A stretch of DNA of 64,000 bases, taken from a virus (lineage: Duplodnaviria; Caudoviricetes). Both the position numbers and the translations under genes were made by a program. The stretch covers positions 32,001-96,000 of IMG/VR virus record IMGVR_UViG_3300033121_000264. One strand, given 5' to 3'. Below are positions 47,197 through 63,204 of the stretch, piece after piece. How positions within the stretch are numbered: position 1 is the first letter of the stretch; each line of letters begins with the position of its first letter. Under the pieces are notes generated by a model that did not search any database, was not told the DNA's origin, and was given only the letters and a program-made list of their open reading frames with translations.

Positions 47197-48127
47197 TATT
47201 GTCCTCTTTTAATGTTTCACTATTTAGTATTGGTTGGTCCACAGTCCCATCTATATATGTATGATATTCGCCCAAGTCATTTAGCGCTTTCTTAGAAGAT
47301 AAAGATATTAGTTCCGCCTCGGTTGACATACGTTGTTTTTCCTTGGCGTTTTCAAATTGTTTTAATAGTCCAATAAAAGTCTTTTTTCTATCTTCAATAT
47401 CCTTATATCGCTGGTCTCTTGTTACTTTTAAGTCCCGGTTCATCTTCTGATGTTTGTCAAGCAACTCATTATATTCTTTTGTCCGGGTCATCTGACTACT
47501 ACGAATGCCCTGAATTTGGGCCATAATAGCTGCCGTATAAGTTCTATGTTGACTAAGTAAAAAGCCCTTATCTTTTTCGCCCAACTCAGATTCTTCGATT
47601 TCCTTATCCTTATCTAACGCCTTATTAAGTTCCTTATCTAGTCGGGCCAACTCACCATCAATTTTAAACTTTTCCTTTAGGTTACGATGCATCATAATTT
47701 CAAGGTCAATAGTCTTACATATCTGGCTTTCTTCTGAGTGAGTCACATCCCAATTAAACTGCTCTAAGAATTTGGCCCAGTGATATAAGTACAACTCTAA
47801 TTCGCGTTCTGAGTATTGTTGTTTAAGTTCGGCCCAGAAGGGTTTTGTTTTTAAGTCCTTAAACGCCTCTTTATTTTCTAGGCGATTGAGTGTTTCGTGC
47901 TTATCATCTATTAATGAGTCGAGATGCTTCTGAACTACTTCTACAGTTCTATTAAGTTGTTGGGCAATTTCATCTGCACTTAGACTATGCATGTTAGTAT
48001 TCATGAAGTTAATTTCTTCAATACTAAACTTACCTCGCTTACGACCGCTCTGTTGTACAACTATGTCCGATGTGTCTGGTTTAGGTGTTTCGCCCTTAGG
48101 TGTTTCATTCACTAGATTGTCTGCCAT
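47189..48127 (-). CDS. Hypothetical protein (N-terminal HTH, coiled coil; candidate terminase small subunit)
   Basis: GKFS.EE..F...IAQQLNRT HTH; located upstream of the packaging genes. Confidence 0.4.
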   Translation of the reverse strand: MADNLVNETPKGETPKPDTSDIVVQQSGRKRGKFSIEEINFMNTNMHSLSADEIAQQLNRTVEVVQKHLDSLIDDKHETLNRLENKEAFKDLKTKPFWAELKQQYSERELELYLYHWAKFLEQFNWDVTHSEESQICKTIDLEIMMHRNLKEKFKIDGELARLDKELNKALDKDKEIEESELGEKDKGFLLSQHRTYTAAIMAQIQGIRSSQMTRTKEYNELLDKHQKMNRDLKVTRDQRYKDIEDRKKTFIGLLKQFENAKEKQRMSTEAELISLSSKKALNDLGEYHTYIDGTVDQPILNSETLKEDNNG

Positions 48128-48767
48128 AGAATTCCTTTATTAACTCTTGTACTGTATGTCTAATTAACTCTTGACGTTGTTTGGTTAGTTTGGCCTGATG
48201 TGATGGTTTGGCTCCAAAATTAGTAATCATCTTAAGATAGTCTGCTCTCATTTCGGCAGGCAAGTGTTCGTCAATGTAGTCCTTTAATTGTTCCGTCTCA
48301 AATTTTTCCTCAACCTCAAAATTTTCCTTCATTCCTCTTTCATTCTCATCATCTATGTCGCCTATATTTACGCAATCAACCAAATTCTTCTTGGTATGAT
48401 TTAAAGTGAACCAGGTATTATACTTATCACATTCCATCTTATCGGTAAAGCCCATACACTGATTCGTCGTTTTTTTACATAACTCATCATATAAAGGGCA
48501 GGCGTGACAAGGCATTGCGGTCCTAAAATACTTATTACGCTTTAGATTGATAAATCGACTTTTAATATACACTCTTAAAAAGTTCTCAAGCGGCCTATCC
48601 TCGTCATATCTTCCATCATTAATCACATCTAATGCTAAAATGGTTCCCTCTTGCTTTAAGTCATCAACATCATAATACCCAAATTTAAATTGTTTGCTTA
48701 ATTGTCCTACTACTTTATCTATTATTGCTAGTGCCTGTTCCTCTGAGTAATTCTTCAATTTTTTCAC
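48105..48767 (-). CDS. Sigma-factor-like protein (candidate late sigma)
   Basis: Region-2-like DDLKQEG..LAL....YD..RPLENFL...IK.R..N; CHAC..C..C..C insert. Confidence 0.65.
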   Translation of the reverse strand: MKKLKNYSEEQALAIIDKVVGQLSKQFKFGYYDVDDLKQEGTILALDVINDGRYDEDRPLENFLRVYIKSRFINLKRNKYFRTAMPCHACPLYDELCKKTTNQCMGFTDKMECDKYNTWFTLNHTKKNLVDCVNIGDIDDENERGMKENFEVEEKFETEQLKDYIDEHLPAEMRADYLKMITNFGAKPSHQAKLTKQRQELIRHTVQELIKEFYGRQSSE

Positions 48768-49633: not shown

Positions 49634-49845
49634 AAATATCTCCTATACGGAAAAACCCCTCCTAGGTATAATACACCACCAACAAATGAGAATTAAAAAG
49701 ATTAAATATAGATAGATTAGCTGAGACAAATTCAATTTTTGTCAGTTGATTTCGTTTGAATGCCCCCAACATTCACGACCCACCCACAGGTAGTATATTT
49801 TGAATGAATAAACGGGCACCCCTATGCCTCATGATGATACATATT

Positions 49846-49924
49846 GTAAGGTGTTGCTATCAATAGACTTATGTATGTGTGATACGCCGGCCCTCCCTAA
49901 GTCCTTACGCTGTAAGGGTTTACG
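49846..49924. repeat. 80-bp double-palindrome element, copy 1
   Basis: TAAGGTGTTG-ctatc-AATAGACTTA at 49847 and TAAGTCCTTA-cgctg-TAAGGGTTTA at 49898; central GC core degenerate; extra single palindrome at ~50011. Confidence 0.75.
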
Positions 49925-49926
49925 AC

Positions 49927-49941
49927 TGGCACGATAGTTGC
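49927..49941 (+). promoter_or_regulatory. Sigma54-type -24/-12 box
   Basis: TGGCACGATAGTTGC matches TGGCACG-N4-TTGC. Confidence 0.65.
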
Positions 49942-49953
49942 CTTGGCCTCATA

Positions 49954-49968
49954 GCAAATACAATGCCA
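49954..49968 (-). promoter_or_regulatory. Sigma54-type -24/-12 box
   Basis: TGGCATTGTATTTGC on the minus strand; a second minus copy, CGGTATGATATTTGC, at 50046-50060. Confidence 0.5.
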
Positions 49969-50210
49969 TACCAAACAGAATAATTCTACAAGAATAATAG
50001 TAGATAGTTGTAAGTCCTTACGCACAACCAGGTTATAGCTAAGTAGCAAATATCATACCGTAACACTCTCATAATAAAATGTTTATTTTCTTGGAAATAT
50101 TTCTTTTAGATATTTTGTTTTCTTTTGTGGAATTGTTCTGGACACGATAGGGATAGGTCGATAGAATACATAGAGACAAGAAAAGAACACTAAAGAGAAG
50201 GAAACGAACA

Positions 50211-50393
50211 ATGCCTAAGCTATTCTCCAAGAAGTCGATGCGTGAAGCGGTTGTCAAGATGCATCCCGTTATTGAGAACGGCCAGCACGTTTGGGTTGTG
50301 AGCAAGGGGTGGAAGTCCAAATATGCTTGGCCGGCCAATGGTATGTCAAGCCTAGAAATTGCCAAAAAAATGATGGAAAACTGGCAAGATTAA
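50211..50393 (+). CDS. Small early hypothetical protein
   Basis: AAGGA RBS; first gene of the plus-strand block. Confidence 0.6.
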   Translation: MPKLFSKKSMREAVVKMHPVIENGQHVWVVSKGWKSKYAWPANGMSSLEIAKKMMENWQD

Positions 50394-50465
50394 GGGTTGA
50401 CAAAACCGATACTAAGTGTAGAATTGAAGCATACAAAGAAACGATAACACGAAGGAGATTGAAAG

Positions 50466-50711
50466 ATGGCTAAGCATGTTAAGACGGTTTCGAGCTGGGA
50501 TTTGTTTTCCGCTACTGTGTTGGGTGTCGATGTGGCACCTAGCAAGGGTGTGCAATTGAGCTACGGCGGTAAGATTCGTCGTGGTACGGTTGAACGTATC
50601 GGACAACGTGAAGATGGTTCGATTGTGTTGAACGTGGAAACGCAAGACGGTTTCCGCAACTTCGATGCAGACTTGATTGAATCTTTCGAGATTCTGGAAT
50701 TAGTTCTCTAA
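50466..50711 (+). CDS. Small WYL/SH3-like protein
   Basis: LSY.G..R.G.VE...GFRNFDADLIESFEIL resembles the WYL R.F..DRI strand; GGAG RBS and own promoter. Confidence 0.5.
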   Translation: MAKHVKTVSSWDLFSATVLGVDVAPSKGVQLSYGGKIRRGTVERIGQREDGSIVLNVETQDGFRNFDADLIESFEILELVL

Positions 50712-50794
50712 GTCTAGTTGACAAAGAGAGAGGCATCGGCTACAATTGGGTAGTCGATAGGATAACAGGAAAAGAAAAAGCCAGAGGTATTAGA

Positions 50795-51013
50795 ATGAGC
50801 ATTGTAAACAGTACCGAATTGACGATTGCCGCAGTACGTGGTATGAGTGTTCGTCTGTTTGGTGAATCGTATGGTACGATTGATTACCATGATGGTTTGT
50901 GGTTTCTTACCATTGGCGGTATACTGTATCACTTCGACGGTGAGGTACTAGATGAGATTAACTATGCTATGGCATATGCTTATCGTGAGTTGATACGCGA
51001 GGGGAAGGTGTGA
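50795..51013 (+). CDS. Small hypothetical protein
   Basis: Own promoter and GAGG RBS. Confidence 0.6.
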   Translation: MSIVNSTELTIAAVRGMSVRLFGESYGTIDYHDGLWFLTIGGILYHFDGEVLDEINYAMAYAYRELIREGKV

Positions 51014-51062
51014 GCGTCACACCTAATGCAGACGCATAGGGCCGCCAGTAGAGGGGTACACA

Positions 51063-51278
51063 ATGGGAATGATGACTATAACGGAGATGCGAGACATGGT
51101 AAGTAGTCTAGAAGTTTCGATTATGCGAAATGAGCAACATCGTGAAGAAGCTCCCCATAACGACAAACGTGAATATTTCCAGTCGATTATTGACGCCCAA
51201 AAATCGGCCAAACGATACTATGAAAAACGTATCGAAGAAGTTGGATTTGATAATATTGAGGAATTTTCTCAAAAATAA
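51063..51278 (+). CDS. Small hypothetical protein
   Basis: GAGG RBS. Confidence 0.55.
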   Translation: MGMMTITEMRDMVSSLEVSIMRNEQHREEAPHNDKREYFQSIIDAQKSAKRYYEKRIEEVGFDNIEEFSQK

Positions 51279-51307
51279 CTCCGGCACAGTAAATGCCTCT
51301 TGACAAC

Positions 51308-51387
51308 CCTAAGTCCTTATAGGATAAGGGGTTAGGTCGCCGGGGCGCGTCCCCTCGCTCTAAGTCCTTACATATCAAGGGTTTACG
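51308..51387. repeat. 80-bp double-palindrome element, copy 2
   Basis: Palindromes at 51310 and 51361, core GGGGCGCGTCCCC; flanked by sigma54-like boxes at 51282 and 51391. Confidence 0.9.
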
Positions 51388-51557
51388 TTCCGGCATGAAA
51401 AATGCCTAGTCAAGAAAAAAGATTTTGCGTGCCTGGCATAAGAATTATTTTCTCGGCTTTTTTGAAAATATTTTCGATTTTGCTATTGTGTTTTGTTGGA
51501 ACGGACGATATAGTATGTAGAGTAATTGATTAAGTGATTGGTTTGAAAGGTTTGAAG

Positions 51558-51767
51558 ATGAAGATTGAAATTGGTGGTCGTGAAGTTTCCCGTAAGTCTT
51601 GCGAAGTTTGCAACGTGCTGTCGTTTGATTATCCGGATTTTTGTGATGCGTATATTGAATATGCCGAATTTGTCGATGGTGGTGAATTGAACGATGAGCA
51701 GCTAGAAATTCTGAATGAAGAAAATTCTATGCTAGTTCACGAATTAGCTCACGAATCGCAATTTTAA
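51558..51767 (+). CDS. Small acidic hypothetical protein
   Basis: DYPDFCDAYI..A...DG.EL..EQL..L; RBS present. Confidence 0.65.
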   Translation: MKIEIGGREVSRKSCEVCNVLSFDYPDFCDAYIEYAEFVDGGELNDEQLEILNEENSMLVHELAHESQF

Positions 51768-51837
51768 GTATTGACGCAAGGTTAAACAGCCGATAAAATC
51801 AGTAGAGTGATACAGTAAAGGTTTTAAGGGTAGAACG

Positions 51838-52032
51838 ATGAGCATTGAAAAGAAATTGATTGAAGCAACGAACGCTGGCGACTATGCTGGTTTCGGCAAA
51901 CATCGCCGGATTGTTAAGGAAACGGAAATTTCGGTGCCGGAAAAGTTTTGCGGTACTGAGATGGAATATGAGCGGTACGTTTCCGCTTACAAACGGTCGA
52001 ATCGTGACGCATACGAAGAATACGCGGAGTAA
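51838..52032 (+). CDS. Small hypothetical protein
   Basis: Own promoter and RBS. Confidence 0.6.
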   Translation: MSIEKKLIEATNAGDYAGFGKHRRIVKETEISVPEKFCGTEMEYERYVSAYKRSNRDAYEEYAE

Positions 52033-52218
52033 ATAAAATGGGTACTTTGCCGCCAGACGGTATGGTTATCGTAACTTTGTCAATCGTCGCCTTTGTTTTT
52101 ATGGTGATTATTATTTGGGATGATATTCGTAAAAATTAGAAATTAGGGTTGACAAATTCGGCCCGGTTGCTAAAATCAGTAGAGTAACGAAAAACGACTT
52201 TTCTTAAGGAATACAAAA

Positions 52219-52437
52219 ATGTCAGAAGCTGAACTAGTTGTCAAGGCTTTAGCTGCTCATTTGCGAGATTTAGCAGATATTTGTTTAAGAGAAGATAATG
52301 ACGGCCGTGGCGAATTATATTTAATCGCAGCGAAAGAATGCGAATCTGCTCTTGACGGCAAATATGGTTGGTCGTTAGAATTGTGGAAAGAATTAAAAGA
52401 ATTACGCGAAGCAAACGAAGATGCACGTTCTTTGTAG
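52219..52437 (+). CDS. Small hypothetical protein
   Basis: Own promoter and AAGGA RBS. Confidence 0.6.
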   Translation: MSEAELVVKALAAHLRDLADICLREDNDGRGELYLIAAKECESALDGKYGWSLELWKELKELREANEDARSL

Positions 52438-52512
52438 ATTCTGAAAATAGGTATTGACAAGCCTAGAAACAGTCGATACAATACATAGAACAAAGGAAAC
52501 AAAGGAAATAAG

Positions 52513-52689
52513 ATGAACGAACAAATTCAAAAAATGCTGGCCGAGCTACTTGATAGCAACGAACAAATTCTGAAATTGAGTGGGTCGAAAGTATCCCCCT
52601 CTGAAGAGGGGTTGGGAAACATTAACAACCATGCTTGCGATATTTATTTATTCGCAAAAAATCTGGAAAGACTATTGACGCAACAATAA
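52513..52689 (+). CDS. Small hypothetical protein (58 aa, below the ORF-track cutoff)
   Basis: Promoter at 52454, AAGGA RBS, open frame MNEQIQKMLAELL... Confidence 0.55.
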   Translation: MNEQIQKMLAELLDSNEQILKLSGSKVSPSEEGLGNINNHACDIYLFAKNLERLLTQQ

Positions 52690-52738
52690 GCGGCCGATAT
52701 AATTAGTAGAGTAACGAACAACGTAAAGGAATAGAAAA

Positions 52739-52954
52739 ATGCTGTACGACAACGAAGAACAATACAACGACGCCCGCGAATACTACGAAGGTAACGATTA
52801 CGACAATTGGGAAAACGAGCAAGTTTTCCAAGATAACGAGGGCGAGGAAGACTGGGGGGGCGAGGAAGATTCGTATGACCCCGGGGAATACGAGGCCAGC
52901 GACGAGGACGATGTTTACGGATGGGACGAGGACGATGGAAGGTGGGACGAATAG
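52739..52954 (+). CDS. Extremely acidic small protein (candidate DNA mimic)
   Basis: 31 of 71 residues are D/E, only 2 basic; own promoter and RBS. Confidence 0.65.
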   Translation: MLYDNEEQYNDAREYYEGNDYDNWENEQVFQDNEGEEDWGGEEDSYDPGEYEASDEDDVYGWDEDDGRWDE

Positions 52955-52963
52955 GTAAAATAC

Positions 52964-53097
52964 GAGGATGGGACGGTCTGGCACCGTGCTAGTTTAGGGG
53001 AAATGTGCAAGCTACACAAAGTACCCAAAACTTACTAGCTGGATACTAGTTAAGCTAGGAAAATAGGATAAAGTGGGTTCGACCCCCACCATTCTCA
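52964..53097 (+). ncRNA. tRNA-like RNA with expanded anticodon arm
   Basis: Acceptor GAGGATG/CATTCTC, D-arm ACGGT-CTGGC-ACCGT, T-arm GTGGG-TTCGACC-CCCAC; terminator hairpin at ~53114-53145. Confidence 0.65.
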
Positions 53098-53184
53098 GCA
53101 AATAAGTAGAATAGGTAGTCTGGGAAAACCTGGGTTGCCCATTTTATTTATATTAACAGTGAGAATGAGTCTCAATCTCGTCGT

Positions 53185-53264
53185 CCTAAGTCCTTTACTG
53201 GTAAGGGTTTACGTCTGGGGGCCGCGCACCGCCCACCTAAGTCTATATACAGTAAGGGTTTACA
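53185..53264. repeat. 80-bp double-palindrome element, copy 3
   Basis: Palindromes at 53187 and 53238; sigma54-like TGGTATGGTATTTGC at 53268. Confidence 0.88.
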
Positions 53265-53403
53265 GTTTGGTATGGTATTTGCCTATCGTTTTAAAAAATA
53301 ATTGTGTGCCGGGCATGAGAATTCTTTTCTGACCTATTTTGGAAAATTGTAGCGAGTGGCGTTGACAGGCGGCCGATAATTATGGTAGACTCAGTGAGTC
53401 AAG

Positions 53404-53622
53404 ATGATTCATTATATGAGGTTTATTATGGTTATTCGTACTGATTTTCAATTGTTGATTCACGACTTAGCCTGCTGCCAACTAATGAAGAAAAAAGATT
53501 TAGATAGGTGCTTAACAGAACGTGGTTCAAACTCTATCATCGTGCTTGGCACCGTTCGCACAATTAAGTGGAAAAGCGAGGGGGCTGGATACTACAAGGT
53601 TTTTACGGTTCCGTTTGAATAG
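53404..53622 (+). CDS. Small hypothetical protein
   Basis: Downstream of a promoter at ~53362; the true start may be internal (~53428, after GAGG). Confidence 0.5.
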   Translation: MIHYMRFIMVIRTDFQLLIHDLACCQLMKKKDLDRCLTERGSNSIIVLGTVRTIKWKSEGAGYYKVFTVPFE

Positions 53623-53780
53623 GTGAAACTATAACCATTGATTTTACGTTTGCACGGTATCGAATGCCGCACCGCAGAAACCGTGATTGCAGAAAATATT
53701 TTGCGAGACTAGTTGACAAGGTTTCGGCCAGTCGCTACAATTCACTAATCGAACGAAGAACACTTTAAGGAGATAGAAAA

Positions 53781-54200
53781 ATGACGAATTTGATTCAACC
53801 GGGAATTACGCTGAACAATGGGGAAGTGATTGGTTCGATGAGCGACCTAGATTGTTTCCGCCAGTTCAGTTTTGACGCATCGACCTATATTGATGCAATC
53901 AATGCTGACAACGGAATCCAGTTGAGCAAGCCGAAAAATGGGAACGGACACAATAAGCCGATTTACCGGATTGCGAAGATTGGGAAAACCCAACGGGCTG
54001 CGACGGTTAAGAAAGAACGGAAAGCTACGAAGGCTGAGAATCTTGCGAAGTATATGAAAGAGGCGGAAGCTGGATTACCTTTGAGTGTTTGCAGCGACGA
54101 CGAACTCTGCGACCGTATGGTCGCCGTGTTAAGCAAGCAAGGTAAGGACGGTTTGAAGTTTGGGGCGGTCGATGGCAAATGGGATGGCGATGAAAACTAA
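53781..54200 (+). CDS. Hypothetical protein
   Basis: Promoter at 53713 and AGGAG RBS. Confidence 0.7.
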   Translation: MTNLIQPGITLNNGEVIGSMSDLDCFRQFSFDASTYIDAINADNGIQLSKPKNGNGHNKPIYRIAKIGKTQRAATVKKERKATKAENLAKYMKEAEAGLPLSVCSDDELCDRMVAVLSKQGKDGLKFGAVDGKWDGDEN

Positions 54201-54209
54201 GGGGAATAG

Positions 54210-54377
54210 ATGATTAAGGTAATTTGGGTGGTGCTGCTGGAATGGGCCAGCAGCGTTGATTGCATGGGAGCCTTCTCTAATGAGACTGAGGCTCAAGAAC
54301 ACTTGAACACTTTGTATGATTCGCTAGATTACCCAAAGTCTGCATTTAGCCTACAATCCACACGCTATAAGGAATAG
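54210..54377 (+). CDS. Small hypothetical protein (55 aa)
   Basis: GGGGA RBS; stop abuts repeat copy 4. Confidence 0.5.
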   Translation: MIKVIWVVLLEWASSVDCMGAFSNETEAQEHLNTLYDSLDYPKSAFSLQSTRYKE

Positions 54378-54378
54378 A

Positions 54379-54459
54379 CCTAAAGCCTTATGGTGTAAGG
54401 ACTTAGGTGGCCGGGGCGCACCCCGTCGATGTAACCATATATACAGTAACACTTTACAT
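54379..54459. repeat. 80-bp double-palindrome element, copy 4
   Basis: Palindromes at 54381 and 54432, core GGGGCGCACCCC. Confidence 0.88.
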
Positions 54460-54540
54460 CTTTAAATTTTGCCTATTGACATATTGGATAAAATGACGAT
54501 AATATTGGTATAGCTCACAACATTGGAAGGATAGATAAGA

Positions 54541-54786
54541 ATGAAAATCTACGTGCTTTGCGATACTTACGTTGATTACGGGCAATATGACCGAGATACG
54601 GAAATTGAGCAATTTAAGGATGTTGCGTCAATTGAGAAGGTCGTGGTAATTTGGGCACAACAGGAAGTTAAGGCAAATAAGATAAGACCGGCAACTTGCA
54701 AAGTATACGACGATGTGGGGCTTTGCGTAGGTAGGGTAGATTTGAAGAAAACTGCGGCGGCTGGTAGGGTCGTGATGGCCCAATAA
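54541..54786 (+). CDS. Small hypothetical protein
   Basis: Promoter at ~54476 and RBS. Confidence 0.6.
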   Translation: MKIYVLCDTYVDYGQYDRDTEIEQFKDVASIEKVVVIWAQQEVKANKIRPATCKVYDDVGLCVGRVDLKKTAAAGRVVMAQ

Positions 54787-54906
54787 TTGTATCGGCTAAT
54801 ATATGCCGATTATGATAGAGCCCGCCATTGCAAGCGAAAAAGTGGCACTCGCAAGCTAATATTGTACTTGACAAAGCTATAACGATTAGTATAATAGAGA
54901 CATATC

Positions 54907-55006
54907 AGGGGACATGGTGACATAATAGTTGTGCTGGTGAGCGGTGGTAACACAGCGGAAGCCAGAGAACATAAGTATTATGGGTGGGTTCGATTCCTGC
55001 TCCCTA
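54907..55006 (+). ncRNA. tRNA-like RNA (T-arm, short acceptor, long GNRA-capped hairpin)
   Basis: Just after promoter 54868; GTGGG-TTCGATT-CCTGC T-arm; GGGGA/TCCCT; CATAATA...TATTATG stem enclosing CTGG/CCAG and GTG-GTAA-CAC. Confidence 0.55.
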
Positions 55007-55041
55007 GCCTTAGTTAGTTCAGAAAAAGCCGAAGGTGAAGT

Positions 55042-55242
55042 ATGTTGAAAGATAAAGCCCTAGCATTACAGTTTGCCCAAGAGTTGAAAGCCCTATTTGA
55101 TAAATATGAGGCAGAACGTATTACGCGAAATGAAAATGACTTGACAATTGTGGGGTCATTTGGTACAATTGATGATATTGACATTACGACTGGTACTATC
55201 TGGTCAGAACAACCTTGTGGTTGGGCATTAATTAAGGAATAA
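55042..55242 (+). CDS. Small hypothetical protein
   Basis: AAGGTG RBS. Confidence 0.55.
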   Translation: MLKDKALALQFAQELKALFDKYEAERITRNENDLTIVGSFGTIDDIDITTGTIWSEQPCGWALIKE

Positions 55243-55250
55243 CAATACAA

Positions 55251-55454
55251 ATGATAGAAAGAATGTGGATTAATCAACCATCAACCTTGCAACCTGACCA
55301 TTTTTGGCATGGTACAAATGTATTGGTTGATATGAGTTCTGTTAGATTTCATGAAAGAACCAAACAGAATCATGTTGACATTTACTTTTTAAGCGGTAAT
55401 ATTATTAGCTGTAGATGCTCAATGTTATCATTATCTAAAGGATGGAAGCAATGA
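55251..55454 (+). CDS. Small hypothetical protein
   Basis: AAGGA RBS; MWINQPSTLQP.H..HG.NVL motif. Confidence 0.65.
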   Translation: MIERMWINQPSTLQPDHFWHGTNVLVDMSSVRFHERTKQNHVDIYFLSGNIISCRCSMLSLSKGWKQ

Positions 55455-55605
55455 AAACCTTTCGGCTTTTTCTTCTCCTAATCACAGTTAAAATCAATAT
55501 TGATGCGAATACGTATCAAATAAAAGATTGGCAACCTTTCGAGATTGTTAATCCTGCCCCAATTATCCCATTGTTACAACCTCTTAAGAAAAATTGGTGG
55601 ATTCC

Positions 55606-55770
55606 ATGACCGAAATGTTATCTGATTGGGCATTCTATTATGGTATGCTAGTTTTCATTTTAGTCGATGAATGGTGTAAAGTACATCAAAGACCATGGTA
55701 TGTAAAATTTATATTACTTACAACAATTTTAACATTTGGCATTTTTATGTTGAAGTTGTATAAGTCCTGA
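55606..55770 (+). CDS. Small membrane protein (54 aa)
   Basis: Two hydrophobic segments; stop lies inside repeat copy 5. Confidence 0.45.
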   Translation: MTEMLSDWAFYYGMLVFILVDEWCKVHQRPWYVKFILLTTILTFGIFMLKLYKS

Positions 55771-55837
55771 CTCCATAAGGAGTTAGGTGTTGGGGGCGTG
55801 CCCCGCGAACGTAAGTGCTTATGTAGTAACGACTTAA
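55760..55837. repeat. 80-bp double-palindrome element, copy 5
   Basis: Palindromes at 55761 and 55812, core GGGGCGTGCCCC. Confidence 0.88.
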
Positions 55838-56011
55838 AACTACTAAAGAATTATCCCCAGGTTACCGATACTATCTATATCAAAGGAGTATTGGTATGAA
55901 AATTATTTTGACAATTCTTGCGATTGGCGTATTGACAATGACGGGCTGCGTTGCTACAATCAAGAGCGTAACAGTTGCTTATAACGATGTGGAAGTAAGG
56001 ACGGAATTCCG

Positions 56012-56200
56012 ATGAAAATTACTATTGATATTCAGCACCGTTACACGGATAATGATAACGAGGAAAATGAATACATTGTCAAAATCTCTGATGATACCAA
56101 ATTAGAGACCAGTGAATACAAGTGTGACGATATTCAAAAAGTAAAGAATTTTATTAGTTTAACAGTTCGTGAAACTTTGTTTGACTTAGGAATGTATTAA
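56012..56200 (+). CDS. Small hypothetical protein
   Basis: AAGGA RBS. Confidence 0.55.
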   Translation: MKITIDIQHRYTDNDNEENEYIVKISDDTKLETSEYKCDDIQKVKNFISLTVRETLFDLGMY

Positions 56201-56349
56201 TGAAAATCACTGGCCGCGAATTGGCACAGATGGGTCGTAATGGTCACACCACCCATTTTAGTGGTACTGGCTTGCATCGCAATTGGAAGAAACAACCAAA
56301 AGGTGGAAAGAAAGCCCAGGCTCGTAAAGCTATTCGAGAATTTGCTTGA
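56200..56349 (+). CDS. Small basic protein (49 aa)
   Basis: Coupled by TAATG; MKITGRELAQMGRNGHTTHFSGTGLHRNWKKQPKGGKKAQARKAIREFA. Confidence 0.5.
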   Translation: MKITGRELAQMGRNGHTTHFSGTGLHRNWKKQPKGGKKAQARKAIREFA

Positions 56350-56404
56350 CAAGTCTGAAAAGTCTGATACACTAAGCTAGTCACCAACAATAAGGATTAG
56401 TAAA

Positions 56405-56659
56405 ATGACTGACCTATCCCATCCTGAGTTTAGACTGACTAGGAACCGGCCATACGTTCTTTGTAACTGTCCTGGACGTAAGGACGTTCGTGCCCGTCAA
56501 GGTTATTACATTCGTGCTAAAGATTCTCAAGCTGCACTTGAGCGAATGGCTGAACACTTTCCGGATGATATGCAATTCGGATTTACTTGCGATTTGTGGA
56601 AGTTGCCCGAAGGTATGAGTTTTGAACACTATAACGAAATGTTGGAGATTATGTCGTGA
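56405..56659 (+). CDS. Small hypothetical protein
   Basis: Promoter at ~56346 and AAGGA RBS. Confidence 0.6.
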   Translation: MTDLSHPEFRLTRNRPYVLCNCPGRKDVRARQGYYIRAKDSQAALERMAEHFPDDMQFGFTCDLWKLPEGMSFEHYNEMLEIMS

Positions 56660-56886
56660 AGATTACAGAAGCAATCAACCAACTTACAGAATGTTTAAAA
56701 ACTGGCGAAACCGACATTATCTTTGCATATTGGGAAAGAAATATGTTTGATATAGACGGTAAACTAATTGACAAAGAAACCTTTGCAGGTTATGCTGAAG
56801 ATATTGAAGACAATATGGATTGGTCGTATGCTTGGGAAGATATGATGGAAATTATTGCTAGAAATGTAGCAGAAGATTCAGAATAA
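56656..56886 (+). CDS. Small acidic hypothetical protein
   Basis: Coupled by GTGA; stop abuts repeat copy 6. Confidence 0.6.
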   Translation: MKITEAINQLTECLKTGETDIIFAYWERNMFDIDGKLIDKETFAGYAEDIEDNMDWSYAWEDMMEIIARNVAEDSE

Positions 56887-56966
56887 CGTAAAGCCTTTAC
56901 TCGTAAGAGTTTAGGCGTTGGGGGCGTGGCCCGCCGCCATAAGTCCTTATATACCAAGGGATTACG
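56887..56966. repeat. 80-bp double-palindrome element, copy 6
   Basis: Palindromes at 56889 and 56940. Confidence 0.88.
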
Positions 56967-57091
56967 CTCACTAGAATTATTCGTAGAATTATTTTTCCAG
57001 GCCGCTTGACAATGCCGATAAAGACTGTATAATGATGGAGTAAGGCAAACGAATCACTTCGATTCGGAACCAATTATCTAAGGAGTCTGAT

Positions 57092-57283
57092 ATGTCGCAA
57101 GTTCAAACCATTCGTGCCCTTCGTATGGCGTCTGCTCTCGTTAAGAAGAACCGTTTCGATACGGCTCGGATTCAGCGTGCTATCAAGTCTAAGGTGGGTG
57201 TGACGGTCGATGGTCGTACGATTGCCGGCATCCGAATGTCGCATCGTTATCAGGTGGGGAAAGCGTTGAGTTTGGTTATGTAA
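57092..57283 (+). CDS. Small basic protein
   Basis: Promoter at 57006 and AAGGAG RBS. Confidence 0.65.
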   Translation: MSQVQTIRALRMASALVKKNRFDTARIQRAIKSKVGVTVDGRTIAGIRMSHRYQVGKALSLVM

Positions 57284-57404
57284 ATAAAAGATTGGGGACT
57301 GGGGGAAATAGCAAAGGTGGGTACAATATGATAGAGACTCACGCCTCCAGTTTTCAATTTTCTAATTTCGTTTTTAGTCAAGCAAACCATTTTTTTGGGA
57401 GACA

Positions 57405-57584
57405 ATGACAATGCAACAATATATTGAGTACCGGTTGAGTGAAAAGGGAAGCGAACACCAAGGCCAATGGATTGAGTTTGGCCGAGTCGAGGCTAAGAGT
57501 CGTCGGCAGGCAATGAAGCAACTAAGTAAGGATGACCCGAAAGAGGGGCCACAAGTTCAGCGGAAAGTTCGTCAGGCCGAATAG
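57405..57584 (+). CDS. Small hypothetical protein (59 aa)
   Basis: GGGAG RBS; open frame MTMQQYIEYRLSEKG... Confidence 0.5.
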   Translation: MTMQQYIEYRLSEKGSEHQGQWIEFGRVEAKSRRQAMKQLSKDDPKEGPQVQRKVRQAE

Positions 57585-57647
57585 GGCTTGACAGATTGAA
57601 AATCCGTTGTAAAATTGTGGTATACTAATCGCTTCTCTTGGTGTAAC

Positions 57648-58040
57648 ATGACGATTGAAAAGCAAGCAACGTTTGATTTTGTTGTTGGAAAAATTCGCGA
57701 ACAGGGTTGTGCTTCTGTTAAACCCGATTCAAATAGCTGTTTGTATCGTGGACCGAATGGTACTAAATGTGCGGCTGGTCATGTCATTCCAGATGAAAAA
57801 TATGACCCTTGTTTTGAGGGTTGTACTGTCCCCGTATCTCTTGCAGACTGGGACTCTGGTAATACTAAAAAACTTTATGAAGTTTTGAAAGAAACTGGAC
57901 ACGATTTAAATTTGTTGCGTTCTTTGCAACGTGCTCACGACAGCATATCTATGGAATATAATTTCCTAGCAGGTTTTGAGAAAAATGTCCAGCATGTAGC
58001 AGAATTTCATGAGTTAGTTTACACTCCGCCGAAGGAGTAG
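57648..58040 (+). CDS. Hypothetical protein, paralog A
   Basis: CLYRGPNGTKCAAGHVIPD...LQRAHD; close paralog of 58722-59108. Confidence 0.75.
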   Translation: MTIEKQATFDFVVGKIREQGCASVKPDSNSCLYRGPNGTKCAAGHVIPDEKYDPCFEGCTVPVSLADWDSGNTKKLYEVLKETGHDLNLLRSLQRAHDSISMEYNFLAGFEKNVQHVAEFHELVYTPPKE

Positions 58041-58041
58041 T

Positions 58042-58121
58042 CCTAAGTCCTTTAGCCGCAAGGCTTTAGGCATAGGGGGCGTGCCCCATAGCTCTAACTC
58101 CTTATGCTACAACGACTTAGA
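58042..58121. repeat. 80-bp double-palindrome element, copy 7
   Basis: Palindromes at 58044 and 58095, core GGGGCGTGCCCC. Confidence 0.88.
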
Positions 58122-58162
58122 AATATACTTGACAGATGAGAATTCTATTGTATAATAATTGA

Positions 58163-58312
58163 ACTTAGGGAGATGCCGCTATGGTGGCGGATACGCCTAT
58201 AAGGTAGGATAGAACGGTCCTACTACCTAGGAGCCAAATACTTGTATCTGCTAAAATAGGCAGATTGCCCCGAGCCACATGATGCCTGCGAAATCAGTCG
58301 CAAGCGAATATT
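58163..58312 (+). ncRNA. Candidate structured ncRNA (four hairpins)
   Basis: Between two consensus promoters with no long ORF; hairpins CCGCTA/TGGCGG, GTAGGA/TCCTAC, ATCTGC/GCAGAT and TGCGA/TCGCA. Confidence 0.45.
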
Positions 58313-58351
58313 TAGGGTTGACAAACGAAAAGCCGAGAGTATAATAGTCGT

Positions 58352-58558
58352 ATGAGCAAACAATTCTTCCATGTTAGTGAGCGGGTTAAAAGTTTAATGA
58401 TGGGCCATATTGAGGGCACTGTTGTTATAACCCATAATAGGGGTGAGTTGGGTTGGGAATACTTTATCTGTTGGGATAATGGGATGAGTGGGTCATTTAC
58501 AGAAGAACAAATTGTAGCAAACGGAATTAAGAAATGTCATCGCTTAAATCAATCCTAA
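58352..58558 (+). CDS. Small SH3-like hypothetical protein (possibly leaderless)
   Basis: F.V.ERVK......GTVV...Y.I.WD.G pattern; ATG ~6 nt after the -10 box. Confidence 0.55.
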   Translation: MSKQFFHVSERVKSLMMGHIEGTVVITHNRGELGWEYFICWDNGMSGSFTEEQIVANGIKKCHRLNQS

Positions 58559-58725
58559 ACCAGAAATCCTACGGCATTTTTATTCAAGGGGTTGACGAAA
58601 ACGGAATTCCTTGTATGATTAGGGTCGCAGGTGAGTGGACGAACAAACGAGTGGCTCAACGTGAAACTCGCCGCTTAATGAATTTGGATAGTCGAAAACT
58701 TAAAGGGGAATTGGTACAATTATGA
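58534..58725 (+). CDS. Small hypothetical protein
   Basis: Coupled ORF. Confidence 0.5.
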   Translation: MSSLKSILNQKSYGIFIQGVDENGIPCMIRVAGEWTNKRVAQRETRRLMNLDSRKLKGELVQL

Positions 58726-59108
58726 TTACTATGCAAGAAACGTTTGATTTCGTTGTCGGTAAGATTCGTGAGCAGGGTTGTGCTTCTATTGTGGAAGGTG
58801 GTAGTAGTTGCCTTTATCGTGGGTCGAATGGTACGAAGTGTGCCGCTGGTCACGTTATCCCAGATGACAAGTATGACCTTATTTTTGAGGGTTGTACCGT
58901 TGTCACGAAACCTTGGGATGGAATGCGTGAAGGTGTTAAAAAGTTGTACGAAGTGTTAAAAGAAACTGGCCACGATTTAGATTTGCTTCGTAACTTACAA
59001 CGATGTCACGACGATGCATCTTCATTTAAAAACTTTATGGAGAAGTTTGAAATTAACGTGAAAGAGATTGCTACCTTAAAAGAATTAACCTACACCCCGA
59101 AAGCATAA
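58722..59108 (+). CDS. Hypothetical protein, paralog B
   Basis: CLYRGSNGTKCAAGHVIPD...LQRCHD. Confidence 0.75.
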   Translation: MITMQETFDFVVGKIREQGCASIVEGGSSCLYRGSNGTKCAAGHVIPDDKYDLIFEGCTVVTKPWDGMREGVKKLYEVLKETGHDLDLLRNLQRCHDDASSFKNFMEKFEINVKEIATLKELTYTPKA

Positions 59109-59121
59109 AACAACCCAACGT

Positions 59122-59201
59122 CATAAGTCCTTACTATGTAGGGATTTATGGCTAAGGGGCACGCCCGCCATACCTAAGTCGTTATGCCACAAGGGTTTAC
59201 G
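59122..59201. repeat. 80-bp double-palindrome element, copy 8
   Basis: Palindromes at 59124 and 59175; sigma54-like CGGCACGATATTTGC at 59204. Confidence 0.88.
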
Positions 59202-59360
59202 TCCGGCACGATATTTGCCCAGAAAATCTTTTCAGAATTATGATGCCAGGCACACCATTTTATTTTATTCTAGGCTCTGTATTAGTGGGGATTAACGATT
59301 GACGCCAGGCCGATTCTATGGTACAATCCAGACTTCGCAGCCAGTTAAAACCGGAGTCAA

Positions 59361-60122
59361 GTGATGGAAATTTTAAAGTTTGGAAAAGCAAACGGAAAAT
59401 TGAAGCAATTGCAAGCAAAATTGGGCCGGAAAGTAGCAATTTTTGATATGCTCGCCGGCCATACTTGCCCATTCGCTAAAGATTGCCTATCTAAAGCAAT
59501 TAACCTAGATGGGAAGCGAACAATTGAAGATGGGAAAGATACAAAGTTTCGGTGCTATGCGGCGAGTTTGGAAGTTATCTATCCGGCCGTATATTTCGCA
59601 CACGAACACAATACTAAGCTGATTCGCACAGCTCTATTGGGGGGTGTGAATAATGTAGTCGATTTGATTACACAATCAATCCCAAAGTGGGCCGAAGTTA
59701 TCCGGATTCACTCATCGGGCGATTTTTTCCATCTTAGCTATTTTGACGCTTGGCGGAAAGTTGCGGAATCTTATCCAGACCGCCTATTCTACGCATATAC
59801 TAAGGCTACCCCGTTCTGGGTGAAACGCCTAGATGCTATCCCCCCGAATATGCTACTTACCGCTAGTTTTGGGGGTAAGCGTGATGATTTGATTTTGTCG
59901 CATAATCTCCGGTCAAGTTTGGTAGTTAAGACCGTAGCAGAAGCGAAAAAATTGAAATTGCCTATTGACAAAGCTGATATTTGTGCAGCTACGCCTGGCC
60001 CTAACTTTGCTTTGCTGATTCATGGAGTTCAGCCGAAGGGAAGCGAATACGGAAAAGCGGTACGGAAACTAAAGGGGAAGGGAAGTTATGGTCGAAAGTC
60101 TACTCGAAAGGTGGCTGTTTAA
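59361..60122 (+). CDS. GP88-like (radical-SAM-like Fe-S) protein
   Basis: TCPFA.DC...CYA, RIHSSGDFF and FYAYTK motifs as in the mycobacteriophage gp88 family. Confidence 0.7.
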   Translation: MMEILKFGKANGKLKQLQAKLGRKVAIFDMLAGHTCPFAKDCLSKAINLDGKRTIEDGKDTKFRCYAASLEVIYPAVYFAHEHNTKLIRTALLGGVNNVVDLITQSIPKWAEVIRIHSSGDFFHLSYFDAWRKVAESYPDRLFYAYTKATPFWVKRLDAIPPNMLLTASFGGKRDDLILSHNLRSSLVVKTVAEAKKLKLPIDKADICAATPGPNFALLIHGVQPKGSEYGKAVRKLKGKGSYGRKSTRKVAV

Positions 60123-60387
60123 TGAAACCGCAAATATGGGCCATTCTATTGGGGGGTTTGATGATTCTCGGATGGTACATGGAAGCAAGTAAAAATTCTG
60201 GCCGCTAGTTGACAAGTCGTGAAAAGATGGTAAAATTTGGGAGTCGTGAGGGGATGACTGAAACGAGAAAAGCCAACAACGAAAAAAACGCGAGTCGCTT
60301 GACAAGCTATAAAATGTTGGTATAATCAAAGAGTCGCCCACAGTTAAACGGTTTTGTAGTTTTTATTTTTTGAAAGGTTGGTGTACG

Positions 60388-60831
60388 ATGGCTGAGCAAG
60401 TGACGAACGGTGTTGAAACGGAAACGACGATTGTTGTCCCGGGTATGAAGGTGGGCAAGTCGGCCCCGAAGATGCGAAAGGATGGTACGCCTCGTAAGGA
60501 GCGTACCGTGGTCGAGGACGAAAAGTTTCTGGCTGCGTATTTCGCGGCGGTTAAGGCCGGTCATCCGGTTAGCAAGTTGGCGGAAACTTTGGGAATGGCG
60601 GTCGGTTCGGTGATTCAACGCATCGAATCGACTAACACGAACCTCTTGGAGGTTGGTGCGAAGCCGCTGCCGAAGTTGGCACGTAAGACCGGTCCCCGAA
60701 AAGACCGTTCCGCCCTGGCTGCCCTAGTTGCCCAGATTGGCAAGGGTACGCTGGAAAGCCTGCCGGTTGAAGCCCCTATTTCGGGGGAAGCTCCGGAAAT
60801 GTCGGACGAGGAAGCTAACAGCGACGCCTAA
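60388..60831 (+). CDS. Putative DNA-binding protein (HTH-like)
   Basis: VSKLAETLGM..GSV.QR; two promoters upstream; GC-richer codons; terminator downstream. Confidence 0.6.
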   Translation: MAEQVTNGVETETTIVVPGMKVGKSAPKMRKDGTPRKERTVVEDEKFLAAYFAAVKAGHPVSKLAETLGMAVGSVIQRIESTNTNLLEVGAKPLPKLARKTGPRKDRSALAALVAQIGKGTLESLPVEAPISGEAPEMSDEEANSDA

Positions 60832-60861
60832 GCACTAGGCCGAGTTGAGTAGAAACTAAGC

Positions 60862-60903
60862 AAGCCACCTATCAGGGGTAACTCTGGTGGGTGGTTTGTT
60901 TTA
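60862..60903 (+). terminator. Rho-independent terminator
   Basis: AAGCCACCTATCAGGG...CTCTGGTGGGTGGTTT followed by GTTTT. Confidence 0.7.
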
Positions 60904-60922
60904 TTGTATAAAATGCAATCGT

Positions 60923-61002
60923 CGTAAGTCCTTACCTGGTAAGGGTTTAGGGCTGGGGGGCGTGCCCCGCCGCTGTAAGTCTATATGCTGTAATGGTTTG
61001 CA
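60923..61002. repeat. 80-bp double-palindrome element, copy 9
   Basis: Palindromes at 60925 and 60976, core GGGGCGTGCCCC. Confidence 0.88.
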
Positions 61003-61087
61003 TTGTTTTATTTTTGTCTATTGACACTTCGATAATTCGGTGTAAAATCACTACATCAAAGCAACTAACTTCACAAAGGAAAATGTC

Positions 61088-61345
61088 ATGCGTATCTGGG
61101 TTCGTAAAGCCGATTGTGTCAAGGCTCGTCAGGCTATGGAAGCCGGTTTGTCTATTAAGGATGGTGCTTGCCCCGTTATCCAAGCGTTGCGTTCGCTTGA
61201 TATTCCGGCCCAAGATTGCGGATATGAGACAATCTACGTCGATGGGAAAGCGTACAATATGAATGGGCACAATACCATTCGCCGTTGGTTGCATACGAAT
61301 TGCGACAACGGATTTTATATCAAGATTAAGGACTTGACATACTAG
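61088..61345 (+). CDS. Small hypothetical protein
   Basis: Promoter at 61021 and AAGGA RBS. Confidence 0.6.
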   Translation: MRIWVRKADCVKARQAMEAGLSIKDGACPVIQALRSLDIPAQDCGYETIYVDGKAYNMNGHNTIRRWLHTNCDNGFYIKIKDLTY

Positions 61346-61400
61346 AAACTTGTGCTACAATTCAATAGTCAACGGTCAACAGTAAACAAGGAATCAAAAA

Positions 61401-61646
61401 ATGAAAACGAACGATTTGAAAAAGGGTACACGAATCAAGTTGGCTAATGGTTGGGAAGCTATTATTGAGGATAATATGAAAGGCAACACTCGCCTTGCCA
61501 AAGTGTTCGGATTCTTTACCGAAATTGGTTCGGTCTACAGTCACGATATTAAGTATTTCCGAAATGATGCTGGTATTTGGGAAAGTGTGGAACATACGCC
61601 AGCCCAAATTAAGATGCGAAAACAAGTCTCAAGTTTTGGAATGTAA
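61401..61646 (+). CDS. Small SH3-like hypothetical protein
   Basis: DLKKGTRIKL.NGW.A...DN..G.TR...V.G...EIGSVYSHDI; own promoter and RBS. Confidence 0.7.
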   Translation: MKTNDLKKGTRIKLANGWEAIIEDNMKGNTRLAKVFGFFTEIGSVYSHDIKYFRNDAGIWESVEHTPAQIKMRKQVSSFGM

Positions 61647-61806
61647 CTAAAGGACGAATAAAATGAAAAATTGTGCCTTGACTTTCTCGTTCTTTGTGGT
61701 ACAATGGGCGTAGTTGCAGCAGTAATAATCTGTGGGCTACGCTAGTGACAAATAAACAGTGGGAAGCTATAATACTTATCCTACTGTTGATTGGGTGGTA
61801 TCGTGA

Positions 61807-61879
61807 GGAACTGTAGTATAATGGTTATTACAGCGGACTTTTAATCCGCAAAATCTGGATTCGACTTCCAGCGGTTCCA
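61807..61879 (+). tRNA. tRNA-Lys (UUU)
   Basis: GGAACTG/CGGTTCC acceptor, GCGGA-CTTTTAA-TCCGC anticodon arm, CTGGA-TTCGACT-TCCAG T-arm. Confidence 0.9.
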
Positions 61880-61903
61880 CTTAATGAATACAATCTAAGA
61901 TAC

Positions 61904-61974
61904 GCCCCATTATGTTAATGGTAGACACGCCGGTTTTCAGCCGGAAAATAACAGTTCGATTCTGTTATGGGGTA
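61904..61974 (+). tRNA. tRNA-Glu (UUC)
   Basis: GCCCCAT/ATGGGGT, CCGG-TTTTCAG-CCGG, AACAG-TTCGATT-CTGTT. Confidence 0.85.
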
Positions 61975-61980
61975 CTTTAT

Positions 61981-62057
61981 GCTGGCATGGCTCGACTGAG
62001 AAAGGCACCGCACTTGTAATGCGGATTATGTGGGCGCGAATCCTACTGTCAGCCCCA
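61981..62057 (+). tRNA. tRNA-Thr (UGU), non-canonical T-loop
   Basis: GCTGGCA/TGTCAGC, CCGCA-CTTGTAA-TGCGG, GTGGG-CGCGAAT-CCTAC, encoded CCA. Confidence 0.85.
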
Positions 62058-62071
62058 TACTAGAGGATAAT

Positions 62072-62236
62072 ATGAAAAGTGAAATTGTTAAAATTGAATT
62101 AACCAAAGAACAATATGAACAGTTAATTAGCGAATTGTATTCATTATATGGTTATCACTGGAATAGCGATAAAGTTCATGCTGATGATTGTGGAAGTAAG
62201 GTGATTGATATCATCCAATCACAAGTCCAATCATAG
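62072..62236 (+). CDS. Small hypothetical protein
   Basis: GAGGA RBS before ATG 62072; stop inside repeat copy 10. Confidence 0.55.
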   Translation: MKSEIVKIELTKEQYEQLISELYSLYGYHWNSDKVHADDCGSKVIDIIQSQVQS

Positions 62237-62299
62237 TAAGGACTTAAGTGTAAGGGGCACGCCCCCCAGACGTAACTCCTTATGCCACACCAGGTTACA
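62220..62299. repeat. 80-bp double-palindrome element, copy 10
   Basis: Palindromes at 62222 and 62273, core GGGGCACGCCCC. Confidence 0.82.
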
Positions 62300-62510
62300 A
62301 ATACAAGCCCCCATTGATGTGATTATTCCCCAGAATATGTATAGACTATAAACAAATACATGATATAATTGTATCATCTAATCTATTCTCATCCCCACAG
62401 GCCAGCCACAGCAAGCCAATTTATATGATTGCCGATGATATTGGTCGTCAGCCAATTTGCCCCAAAAGAGGTATAGACAGACCGTAAAAAGATAGTATAA
62501 TGAGATATAT

Positions 62511-63109: not shown

Positions 63110-63183
63110 TACGGTGGGGAGCCGCTGGTGGCTCGGAATAGCTGTTAACTATTTTGCCATTGGTTCGATTCCAATTGCCGTAG
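63110..63183 (+). tRNA. tRNA-Asn (GUU) with 6-bp D-stem
   Basis: TACGGTG/TGCCGTA, GAGCCG-CTGG-TGGCTC, AATAG-CTGTTAA-CTATT, ATTGG-TTCGATT-CCAAT; own promoter. Confidence 0.8.
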
Positions 63184-63204
63184 CTAGTTTAGATAGGACA
63201 ACGT

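Follow-up and report, generated by a model that had tools for sequence, protein, structure and literature searches.

The stretch of DNA considered here, a window of 64,000 nucleotides (nt), covers positions 32001-96000 of a 104,685-bp contig from an uncultured phage in IMG/VR (IMGVR_UViG_3300033121_000264; Duplodnaviria; Caudoviricetes), the genome completeness of which is estimated at 68%. Gene direction flips at 49.6 kb of the window, with virion and packaging genes running leftward and a 13-kb block of very small genes running rightward, and this rightward block contains seven short sequences, here called boxes, that resemble the -24/-12 sites of sigma-54 (RpoN) RNA polymerase and form the subject of this report.

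A control region with repeated palindromes and seven boxes

Ten double-palindrome elements partition the small-gene block, each lying between the end of one gene group and the next sigma-70 promoter and each built of two imperfect palindromes (TAAGTCCTTAC-N4-GTAAGGGTTTA) that flank a G+C-rich spacer. Sigma-70 consensus promoters are abundant in this block (77 against 29.9 expected), and intrinsic terminators are not in excess (10 against 10.6 expected). All seven boxes are intergenic and lie at most about 30 nt from a palindrome of these elements, six of the ten elements having no box at all. The features are listed below in window coordinates, with scores in bits from a matrix of relatives' boxes described in the next section.

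49847..62298, plus strand: ten double-palindrome elements of ~80 nt (repeat families D1 and D2), starting at 49847, 51307, 53184, 54378, 55758, 56886, 58041, 59121, 60922 and 62219
49927..49941, plus strand: strong box TGGCACGATAGTTGC, 4 nt past the right palindrome of copy 1, directed toward the rightward early genes
49954..49968, minus strand: strong box TGGCATTGTATTTGC, face to face with the box at 49927, directed toward the leftward operon with the sigma-like gene
50046..50060, minus strand: weak box CGGTATGATATTTGC, 12.7 bits, inside the shuffle range
51282..51296, plus strand: weak box CGGCACAGTAAATGC, 11.1 bits
51391..51405, plus strand: very weak box CGGCATGAAAAATGC after copy 2, below 9 bits, also a GGCAT/ATGCC dyad
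51430..51448, plus strand: partial second box TGCC-T-GGCAT-N5-TTAT, with a half resembling -24 but lacking GC at -12
51486..51514, plus strand: sigma-70-type promoter of the operon after copy 2, TTGTGT-N17-TATAGT, aligning with promoter repeat family D3
53268..53282, plus strand: strong box TGGTATGGTATTTGC after copy 3, 17.5 bits, 94 nt upstream of the -35 hexamer at 53362
53307..53325, plus strand: partial second box TGCC-G-GGCAT-N5-TTCT
53362..53391, plus strand: sigma-70-type promoter after copy 3
59204..59218, plus strand: strong box CGGCACGATATTTGC after copy 8, 20.1 bits, ahead of the Gp88-family gene
59244..59262, plus strand: partial second box TGCC-A-GGCAC-N5-TTTA
59299..59327, plus strand: sigma-70-type promoter after copy 8

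A preliminary description of this DNA, made from the letters alone, had reported seven boxes with exact GG-N10-GC spacing; this spacing is present in all seven, and every 15-mer quoted there lies at the coordinate and on the strand given for it. The box at 49927(+) matches TGGCAC-N5-TTGC exactly (19.6 bits), and that at 49954-68(-) has the top score of the whole contig (20.5 bits). Measured against the extended consensus TGGCAC-N5-TTGC(A/T), mismatches number 0 at 49927, 1 at 49954-68(-), 1 at 59204 and 2 (both C to T) at 53268, with 51282, 51391 and 50046-60 being poor matches. The first two boxes have 12 nt between their GC dinucleotides, and from the usual footprint size of the holoenzyme we infer that two polymerases could not occupy them together. 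Two of the weaker boxes point into a palindrome, which is the layout usual in relatives: 50046-60(-), with its GC end ~10 nt from a degenerate palindrome (50011-50035), and 51282(+), which precedes the left palindrome of copy 2 by 13 nt. The boxes at 49927, 51391, 53268 and 59204 had been described as docked 2-3 bp after the right palindrome; the docking itself stands, at a distance of 4 nt when counted from ...GGGTTTA and of 2-3 nt if the palindrome is taken to include C or CG.

Copies 2, 3 and 8 head a conserved module of ~200 nt, in which the start of the box precedes the start of the next -35 hexamer by 95 nt (51391 to the promoter at 51486..51514), 94 nt and 95 nt (59204 to 59299), respectively; the copy 1 box lies 212 nt upstream of its promoter. 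In the alignment of these modules, the very weak box at 51391 occupies the slot that is taken by a strong box in copies 3 and 8. Each of the three boxes is followed ~27 nt later by a partial box, TGCC-N-GGCAY-N5-TT(A/C/T)T, which in copy 2 lies ~52 nt upstream of the -35 hexamer and forms a conserved island in the alignment. The same order of full box, partial box (TTTGGCACAAGATTAT in the matching place) and sigma-70 promoter is found in the related loci L103, L029 and L120.

Few near-perfect sites rise above chance

A pattern written after the sites had been seen, YGGYAY-N5-WTGC, has nine occurrences in the whole contig (104,685 bp), where dinucleotide shuffles give 1.96 +/- 1.4, and seven within 49634-62400 against 0.36 expected, a count that none of 1000 shuffles reaches. 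As such a pattern is circular, a less circular test was used in addition, namely a 21-column matrix built solely from 218 boxes of other phages. At 17 bits or more this matrix finds four sites, the contig's four top scores, against 0.21 expected and a maximum of two in any of 150 shuffles; at 11 bits or more it finds seven against 2.99 expected. Treated as one set in the preliminary description, the boxes separate on this scale, since four of them reach 17.5-20.5 bits and those at 50046-60(-), 51282(+) and 51391(+) fall within the noise of shuffled sequence. Taken over the whole window, an a-priori consensus with up to two mismatches allowed shows no enrichment (11 against 8.4). The signal is one of a few near-perfect sites plus their placement: four boxes are strong, and the other three are credible only through their location.

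A box class common to related phages

By an exact-pattern scan, at least 120 IMG/VR loci from freshwater and marine samples have the same double palindrome, and these were chosen regardless of whether a box was present. In 120 palindrome loci, TGGCAC-N5-TTGC (at most one mismatch, GG and GC fixed) is found 227 times against 12-30 in shuffles; the control loci L210-L292, having been selected for a box-like match and hence being biased, were left out as background. The logo of 218 unique sites from relatives consists of an A/T-rich stretch followed by TTTGGCAC(G/A)gnATTTGCT, and we read it as the RpoN consensus. For comparison, the E. coli RpoN holoenzyme motif selected in vitro is TGGCACnnTTnTTGC (PMC8743547), and E. 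coli RpoN sites mapped by chromatin immunoprecipitation include variants such as GTGCA at -12 (PMC4591121). The earlier assignment of the boxes to the sigma-54 type is borne out, in that their sequence class, ~10-fold enriched in at least 120 related contigs, is indistinguishable from RpoN -24/-12 sites; judged by sequence, the boxes are real members of this site class, which is common to a large uncultured phage family.

Across 103 non-identical aligned site pairs, variation within +/-30 nt is lowest at the second G of GG (substitution 0.07) and at the GC (0.05 and 0.03) and highest in the N5 spacer (0.32), with flanks at 0.25. Variation is higher than expected at the first G (0.22) and at the C that follows GG (0.32), probably through the alignment of paralogous and GGTAT-type sites. 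Two of the complete relatives (166 and 161 kb) have all their exact boxes within a single region of 3-4 kb (7/7 and 9/9), and a third (238 kb) has a single exact box.

Two classes of box can be recognised in relatives. In the gene-proximal class, a small gene has TGGCAC-N5-(G/T)TGCAT 30-39 nt ahead of its ATG, and further upstream come an A-tract and, at about -95 to -170, three GTAGCAAAATGCTAC dyads; the relatives' conserved leader begins ~12 nt after the GC, which fits a start site without proving one. By its geometry this layout reads as that of a classic enhancer-dependent sigma-54 promoter, and it is the strongest argument for a sigma-54 reading. Two other identities for the gene-proximal boxes were rejected: as sigma-70 promoters they would need a -35/-10 pair, for which the 12-13 nt between TTGGCA and the TATATA stretch are too few, and as promoters of the phage's own sigma factor they would have to fit a tgGTGTATWAT class that has no GG-N10 upstream. 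Such enhancer-type units, the leader of which is purine-rich, occur at L103:4150-4330 and 5540-5720 and also in L007, L026, L028, L030, L052, L106, L109, L115, L120, L125 and L135; one of the L103 unit genes (~143 aa) opens with a DxDxT motif like that of HAD phosphatases.

The palindrome-associated class lies within 150 nt of about a third of 210 unique double palindromes, with the GC end most often 9-17 nt from the palindrome and the box pointing into it, so that docking at 2-3 bp does not hold as a family rule. With gene strand judged by strand-composition skew, 46 of the relatives' boxes in this class are downstream of and antisense to genes, against 15 downstream and sense as in this phage. 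Face-to-face pairs with 5-12 nt between GC dinucleotides recur (window 49927-49968; L088, L098, L100, L113, L115 and L117), as do back-to-back pairs in these loci (TGCCAA, A-rich stretch, TTGGCA), and simple promoter logic explains neither arrangement.

The boxes of the present phage belong to the palindrome-associated class in an unusual arrangement, four plus-strand boxes being docked at 4 nt and pointing with the genes. A scan for the docked layout gives 83 matches, about the chance number, and outside this phage the full palindrome with box is found only in L270; we read docking right after the right palindrome as a variant of this lineage. The sole dyads near this phage's boxes are the abutting double palindromes, and no gene-proximal enhancer-type unit was found in the 104.7 kb (68% of the genome) available. 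With L103 it has in common the double palindromes, the Gp88-family gene, sigma-70 promoters with a GCCGATA-like motif after the -35 hexamer, and a small gene of the sigma-70 family, placed two genes to the left of the divergent control region. A blastn search of the early region against all loci returned matches solely to repeats and promoters and no close relative; no relatives were found of a 128-aa neighbour protein, and the relatives of the Gp88-family protein (28 loci) are 38-55% identical, some having reverse-strand boxes instead.

Cultured relatives were not found in DNA and protein searches of a phage collection, in which the early region and a 483-aa virion-module protein were unmatched and the 105-nt repeat plus box likewise gave no match. 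The terminase is at best 23-30% identical to those of Bacillus, Clostridium and Microcystis phages.

Proposed conditional promoters read by a host polymerase

At a probability of roughly 0.55, we favour the reading that the strong boxes are true sites of the RpoN holoenzyme and serve three or four early operons, and perhaps the leftward one as well, as promoters that fire conditionally. Host RNA polymerase bearing sigma-54 would bind the boxes as a closed complex, which would fire only once opened by an ATP-dependent activator. As the phage has no canonical activator, this would be either a host enhancer-binding protein or an unrecognised phage factor, for which the abutting palindromes are candidate sites. 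On this scheme, the plus-strand boxes after copies 1, 2, 3 and 8 would be conditional second promoters of the early operons that follow, and the best minus-strand box (49954-68) may serve the leftward operon that it faces, which includes the phage's own small sigma factor. Given the boxes and the lack of an encoded activator, part of the phage's gene control probably depends on a host factor.

The palindromes themselves had been taken as sites of integration host factor (IHF) placed just upstream of -24, and this premise fails: within 49600-62500 the IHF core WATCAANNNNTTR is matched once, at 51373 in the right palindrome of copy 2, the nine other elements being without it, and what the elements conserve is another core, in dyad form. 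To judge from this, the palindromes are not IHF sites.

Several observations weigh against the promoter reading. By score alone, chance would account for three of the seven boxes. All five plus-strand boxes read TTGCC and so form GGCA-N7-TGCC dyads in which C, not A/T, follows the GC, as is the case in only ~10% of relatives' boxes. Many boxes, both here and in relatives, are paired head-on or back-to-back or aimed into palindromes and against genes, which would be strange in simple promoters, and the GCAAAATGC dyad cluster of relatives was not found in the part of this phage's genome covered by the contig. Sigma-54 domains (PF04552, PF04963) were detected neither in the contig nor in five relatives (four of them at least 94% complete). 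The earlier statement that the window encodes no enhancer-binding protein holds for the whole contig and for 42 related phage records, in which no activator domain (PF00158, PF14532) was detected and only weak generic AAA+ matches appeared; a GAFTGA AAA+ protein, for which a search of the rest of the genome had been proposed, is likewise not indicated, since no GAFTGA motif occurs in six-frame translations of the contig or of 120 relatives' loci. With neither a sigma-54 gene nor an activator gene found in the phage, an outside factor is required, and the metagenome-assembled genomes (MAGs) that include related phage contigs are inconsistent in this respect, with rpoN in two of five.

These MAG bins were rejected as evidence of the host, as they belong to unrelated taxa, are inconsistent in rpoN and include phage contigs that are probably mis-binned. 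A palindrome scan of bacterial genomes gave 60 loci. Single chromosomal palindromes occur in about the chance number, as terminator-like hairpins (Listeria, Erysipelothrix, Vibrio) or scattered sites (Planctomycetota), and true double palindromes lie on short, probably mis-binned phage contigs from unrelated taxa.

Alternative explanations for the boxes

Of the competing explanations, the one that survives best, although we consider it unlikely, makes the boxes operators of a different, most likely phage-encoded, protein that recognises GGCA/TGCC half-sites and tunes the sigma-70 promoters, the likeness to RpoN sites being convergent. The dyad form of the five plus-strand boxes suits such a protein, as do the same half-sites in the order TGCC-N-GGCA ~27 nt further on, the occurrence of boxes in every orientation, including head-on and back-to-back pairs, only within the 3-4 kb control region, and the failure to find a phage-encoded sigma-54 or activator; the fixed 94-95 nt to the sigma-70 -35 hexamer is what would be expected of a factor acting there. 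The family logo (TTTGGCAC...TTTGCT), however, is asymmetric and not a dyad, and it fits RpoN at GG, at GC, at the Y of the sixth base, at the TT before GC and at the T/A after it, its most conserved positions being TGC and the second G of GG and its least conserved ones those of the 5-nt spacer. The relatives' gene-proximal boxes also show sigma-54 geometry (three dyads, A-tract, leader ~12 nt after GC), and a -35/-10 reading fails on spacing.

Less probable again, although it is the main variant of the favoured reading, is that the sigma-54 holoenzyme binds the boxes non-productively, either marking boundaries by the sigma-70 promoters or acting as a sponge that silences host sigma-54 stress regulons, in which case the growing number of boxes during phage replication would deplete the cell's small supply of this holoenzyme. 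Such binding would need no activator, the gene for which is in none of the searched phage records, nor upstream dyads of the relatives' type, which were not found in this phage; and many relatives' boxes lie against genes or head-on, so that two holoenzymes could not bind them simultaneously. The near-absence of intrinsic terminators (10 against 10.6, as above) would make another boundary device useful, and a bound, enhancer-less RpoN holoenzyme has been proposed as a repressor in E. coli (PMC8743547). On the other hand, intragenic sigma-54 in E. coli left the expression of the genes concerned unchanged, which the authors of that work read as excluding roadblock repression (PMC4591121). The box is absent from six of ten elements and is not needed for element function, and the relatives' boxes with upstream dyads, fixed leader and gene look like working promoters.

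More doubtful still is a bolder proposal, in which the family, widespread and made up of large aquatic phages, runs part of its early control through the host sigma-54 polymerase and dispenses with the canonical ATPase. Here, a phage opener of a new type would perhaps bind the imperfect double palindromes abutting the boxes and open the sigma-54 closed complex or, alternatively, the boxes would act as a sponge that disarms host sigma-54 stress regulons while gating the operon of the phage's own sigma.

Finally, the idea that the boxes are chance matches or short RNA hairpins of the repeat element (a GGCA stem with a 7-nt loop), to which the three boxes scoring in the shuffle range, the unenriched loose consensus and a terminator-scan call at 51297-51283 on the minus strand lend some colour, is essentially excluded by four sites of at least 17 bits against 0.21 expected, all within ~30 nt of a palindrome, by the ~10-fold enrichment of the class in 120 independent contigs, by the T or A after GC in most relatives' boxes, which precludes the hairpin, and by the marginal 4-bp stem. 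An identity as intrinsic terminators or RNA hairpins was rejected separately, the stem being at most 4-5 bp with no T run and terminators not being enriched; most relatives' boxes are not self-complementary.

Imperfect symmetry of the palindromes

The palindromes also depart from simple symmetry. Among 186 unique double palindromes of relatives, a perfectly complementary 4-nt half-site core occurs once, against 58.9 +/- 6.4 expected were the halves independent, with GTCC/ACCC and GTCC/GTCG as the most frequent core pairs. This strong, apparent avoidance of perfect dyads speaks against a plain hairpin role of the palindromes and favours either an asymmetric site for a protein or a structure that is imperfect by design. 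Fold energies of the palindromes are similar in sense and antisense, and mismatches of the G-U type outnumber those of the A-C type by 108 to 50 on the strand that an inward-pointing box would transcribe.

Neighbouring genes and other promoter classes

Two protein-coding genes lie in the direction in which boxes point.

48105..48767, minus strand: small phage sigma-70-family (region 2) gene of the leftward operon faced by the minus-strand boxes, with a weak PF04542 match
59361-60122: Gp88-family gene (PF17338), downstream of copy 8

The product of the first is 29% identical (E 9e-22) to that of L103:1087-1611(-), which clears the PF04542 cut-off and is its orthologue. A second small sigma-70-family (region 2) gene lies at 29874-30077 (+) of the contig, ~2 kb before the window start. 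In the complete relatives G001 and G002 a sigma-like gene is found within 1-2 kb of the box cluster, and in G004 ~10 kb from the single box.

Promoter-like sites of a third class, tgGTGTAT(A/T)AT, have neither a -35 hexamer nor GG-N10 upstream and are present in ~17 copies ahead of late or leftward genes and of replication-module genes, examples being 49676(-), 43428(-), 36758(-), 34078(-), 32289(-), 29728(-) and 1155(+). The site at 49676, tgGTGTATTAT, belongs to the leftward operon holding the sigma-like gene, and the class is a candidate target of the phage's own sigma factor. As the sigma-70 and tgGTGTATWAT classes both differ from the box, this small sigma already has a candidate motif separate from it. 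The family's sigma-70 promoters have a conserved GCCGATA/GACGATA 2-3 nt past the -35 hexamer (window 50397-61361; L103, L183-L208), and this unusual conserved spacer may mark a further recognition element.

To the right of the divide, a third tRNA is found by Rfam at 61981-62054 (+) (40.3 bits) and is not called by ARAGORN, tRNA-Asn at 63110-63184 is called by ARAGORN alone, and tRNA-like T-arm sequences (GGTTCGATTCC) occur at 54987 and 62652 with no called gene. Between the terminase gene and the control region lies an auxiliary sugar-nucleotide gene, a full-length GDP-mannose 4,6-dehydratase at 46141-47196 (-) (PF16363, E 3e-103), which might be useful for tracing the host.

Comparison with known systems

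Textbook accounts of phage transcription rely on the sigma-70 polymerase of the host or on sigma factors or polymerases of the phage itself. Promoters of the sigma-54 type are well known and remain silent until a signal-sensing ATPase activator fires them; full-text searches found no published account of a phage promoter class read by sigma-54. If the boxes work, an abundant freshwater and marine phage family would couple part of its gene set to host physiology or, alternatively, would interfere with host sigma-54 responses. With its hundreds of natural variants of box, dyad and spacing, the family makes the idea directly testable in vitro.

The closest likeness is to the enhancer-dependent sigma-54 promoters of bacteria, such as E. 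coli glnAp2 with its NtrC sites and pspA with PspF and IHF, which have in common with the boxes the GG-N10-GC of TGGCAC-N5-TTGC and an A/T-rich upstream stretch; in the relatives there are in addition three dyads, between about -95 and -170, and a leader that starts ~12 nt past the GC. Unlike these promoters, the boxes are on a virulent-looking phage for which neither sigma-54 nor an enhancer-binding ATPase was found encoded, and many boxes of the family are aimed into dyads or against genes. The dyads nearest to this phage's boxes also differ from bacterial enhancers in abutting the box, with centres at about -40 and -91 and no distance for a loop.

In enteric bacteria, glnAp1 (sigma-70) and glnAp2 (sigma-54) are tandem promoters ~100 nt apart that serve one operon. 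The phage modules resemble this pair in giving one operon both a sigma-70 promoter and a putative sigma-54 promoter ~100 nt apart; the order, however, is reversed, with the sigma-54 box upstream, and at least three operons are preceded by such a module, with the spacing fixed at 94-95 nt.

A further parallel is offered by the non-productive or 'repressive' RpoN sites of E. coli (PMC4591121, PMC8743547), which likewise combine a good -24/-12 with no obvious activator site and are sometimes antisense and sometimes beside sigma-70 promoters. Those sites are scattered and mostly intragenic, whereas the phage sites are intergenic, clustered, tied to palindromes and conserved across the family.

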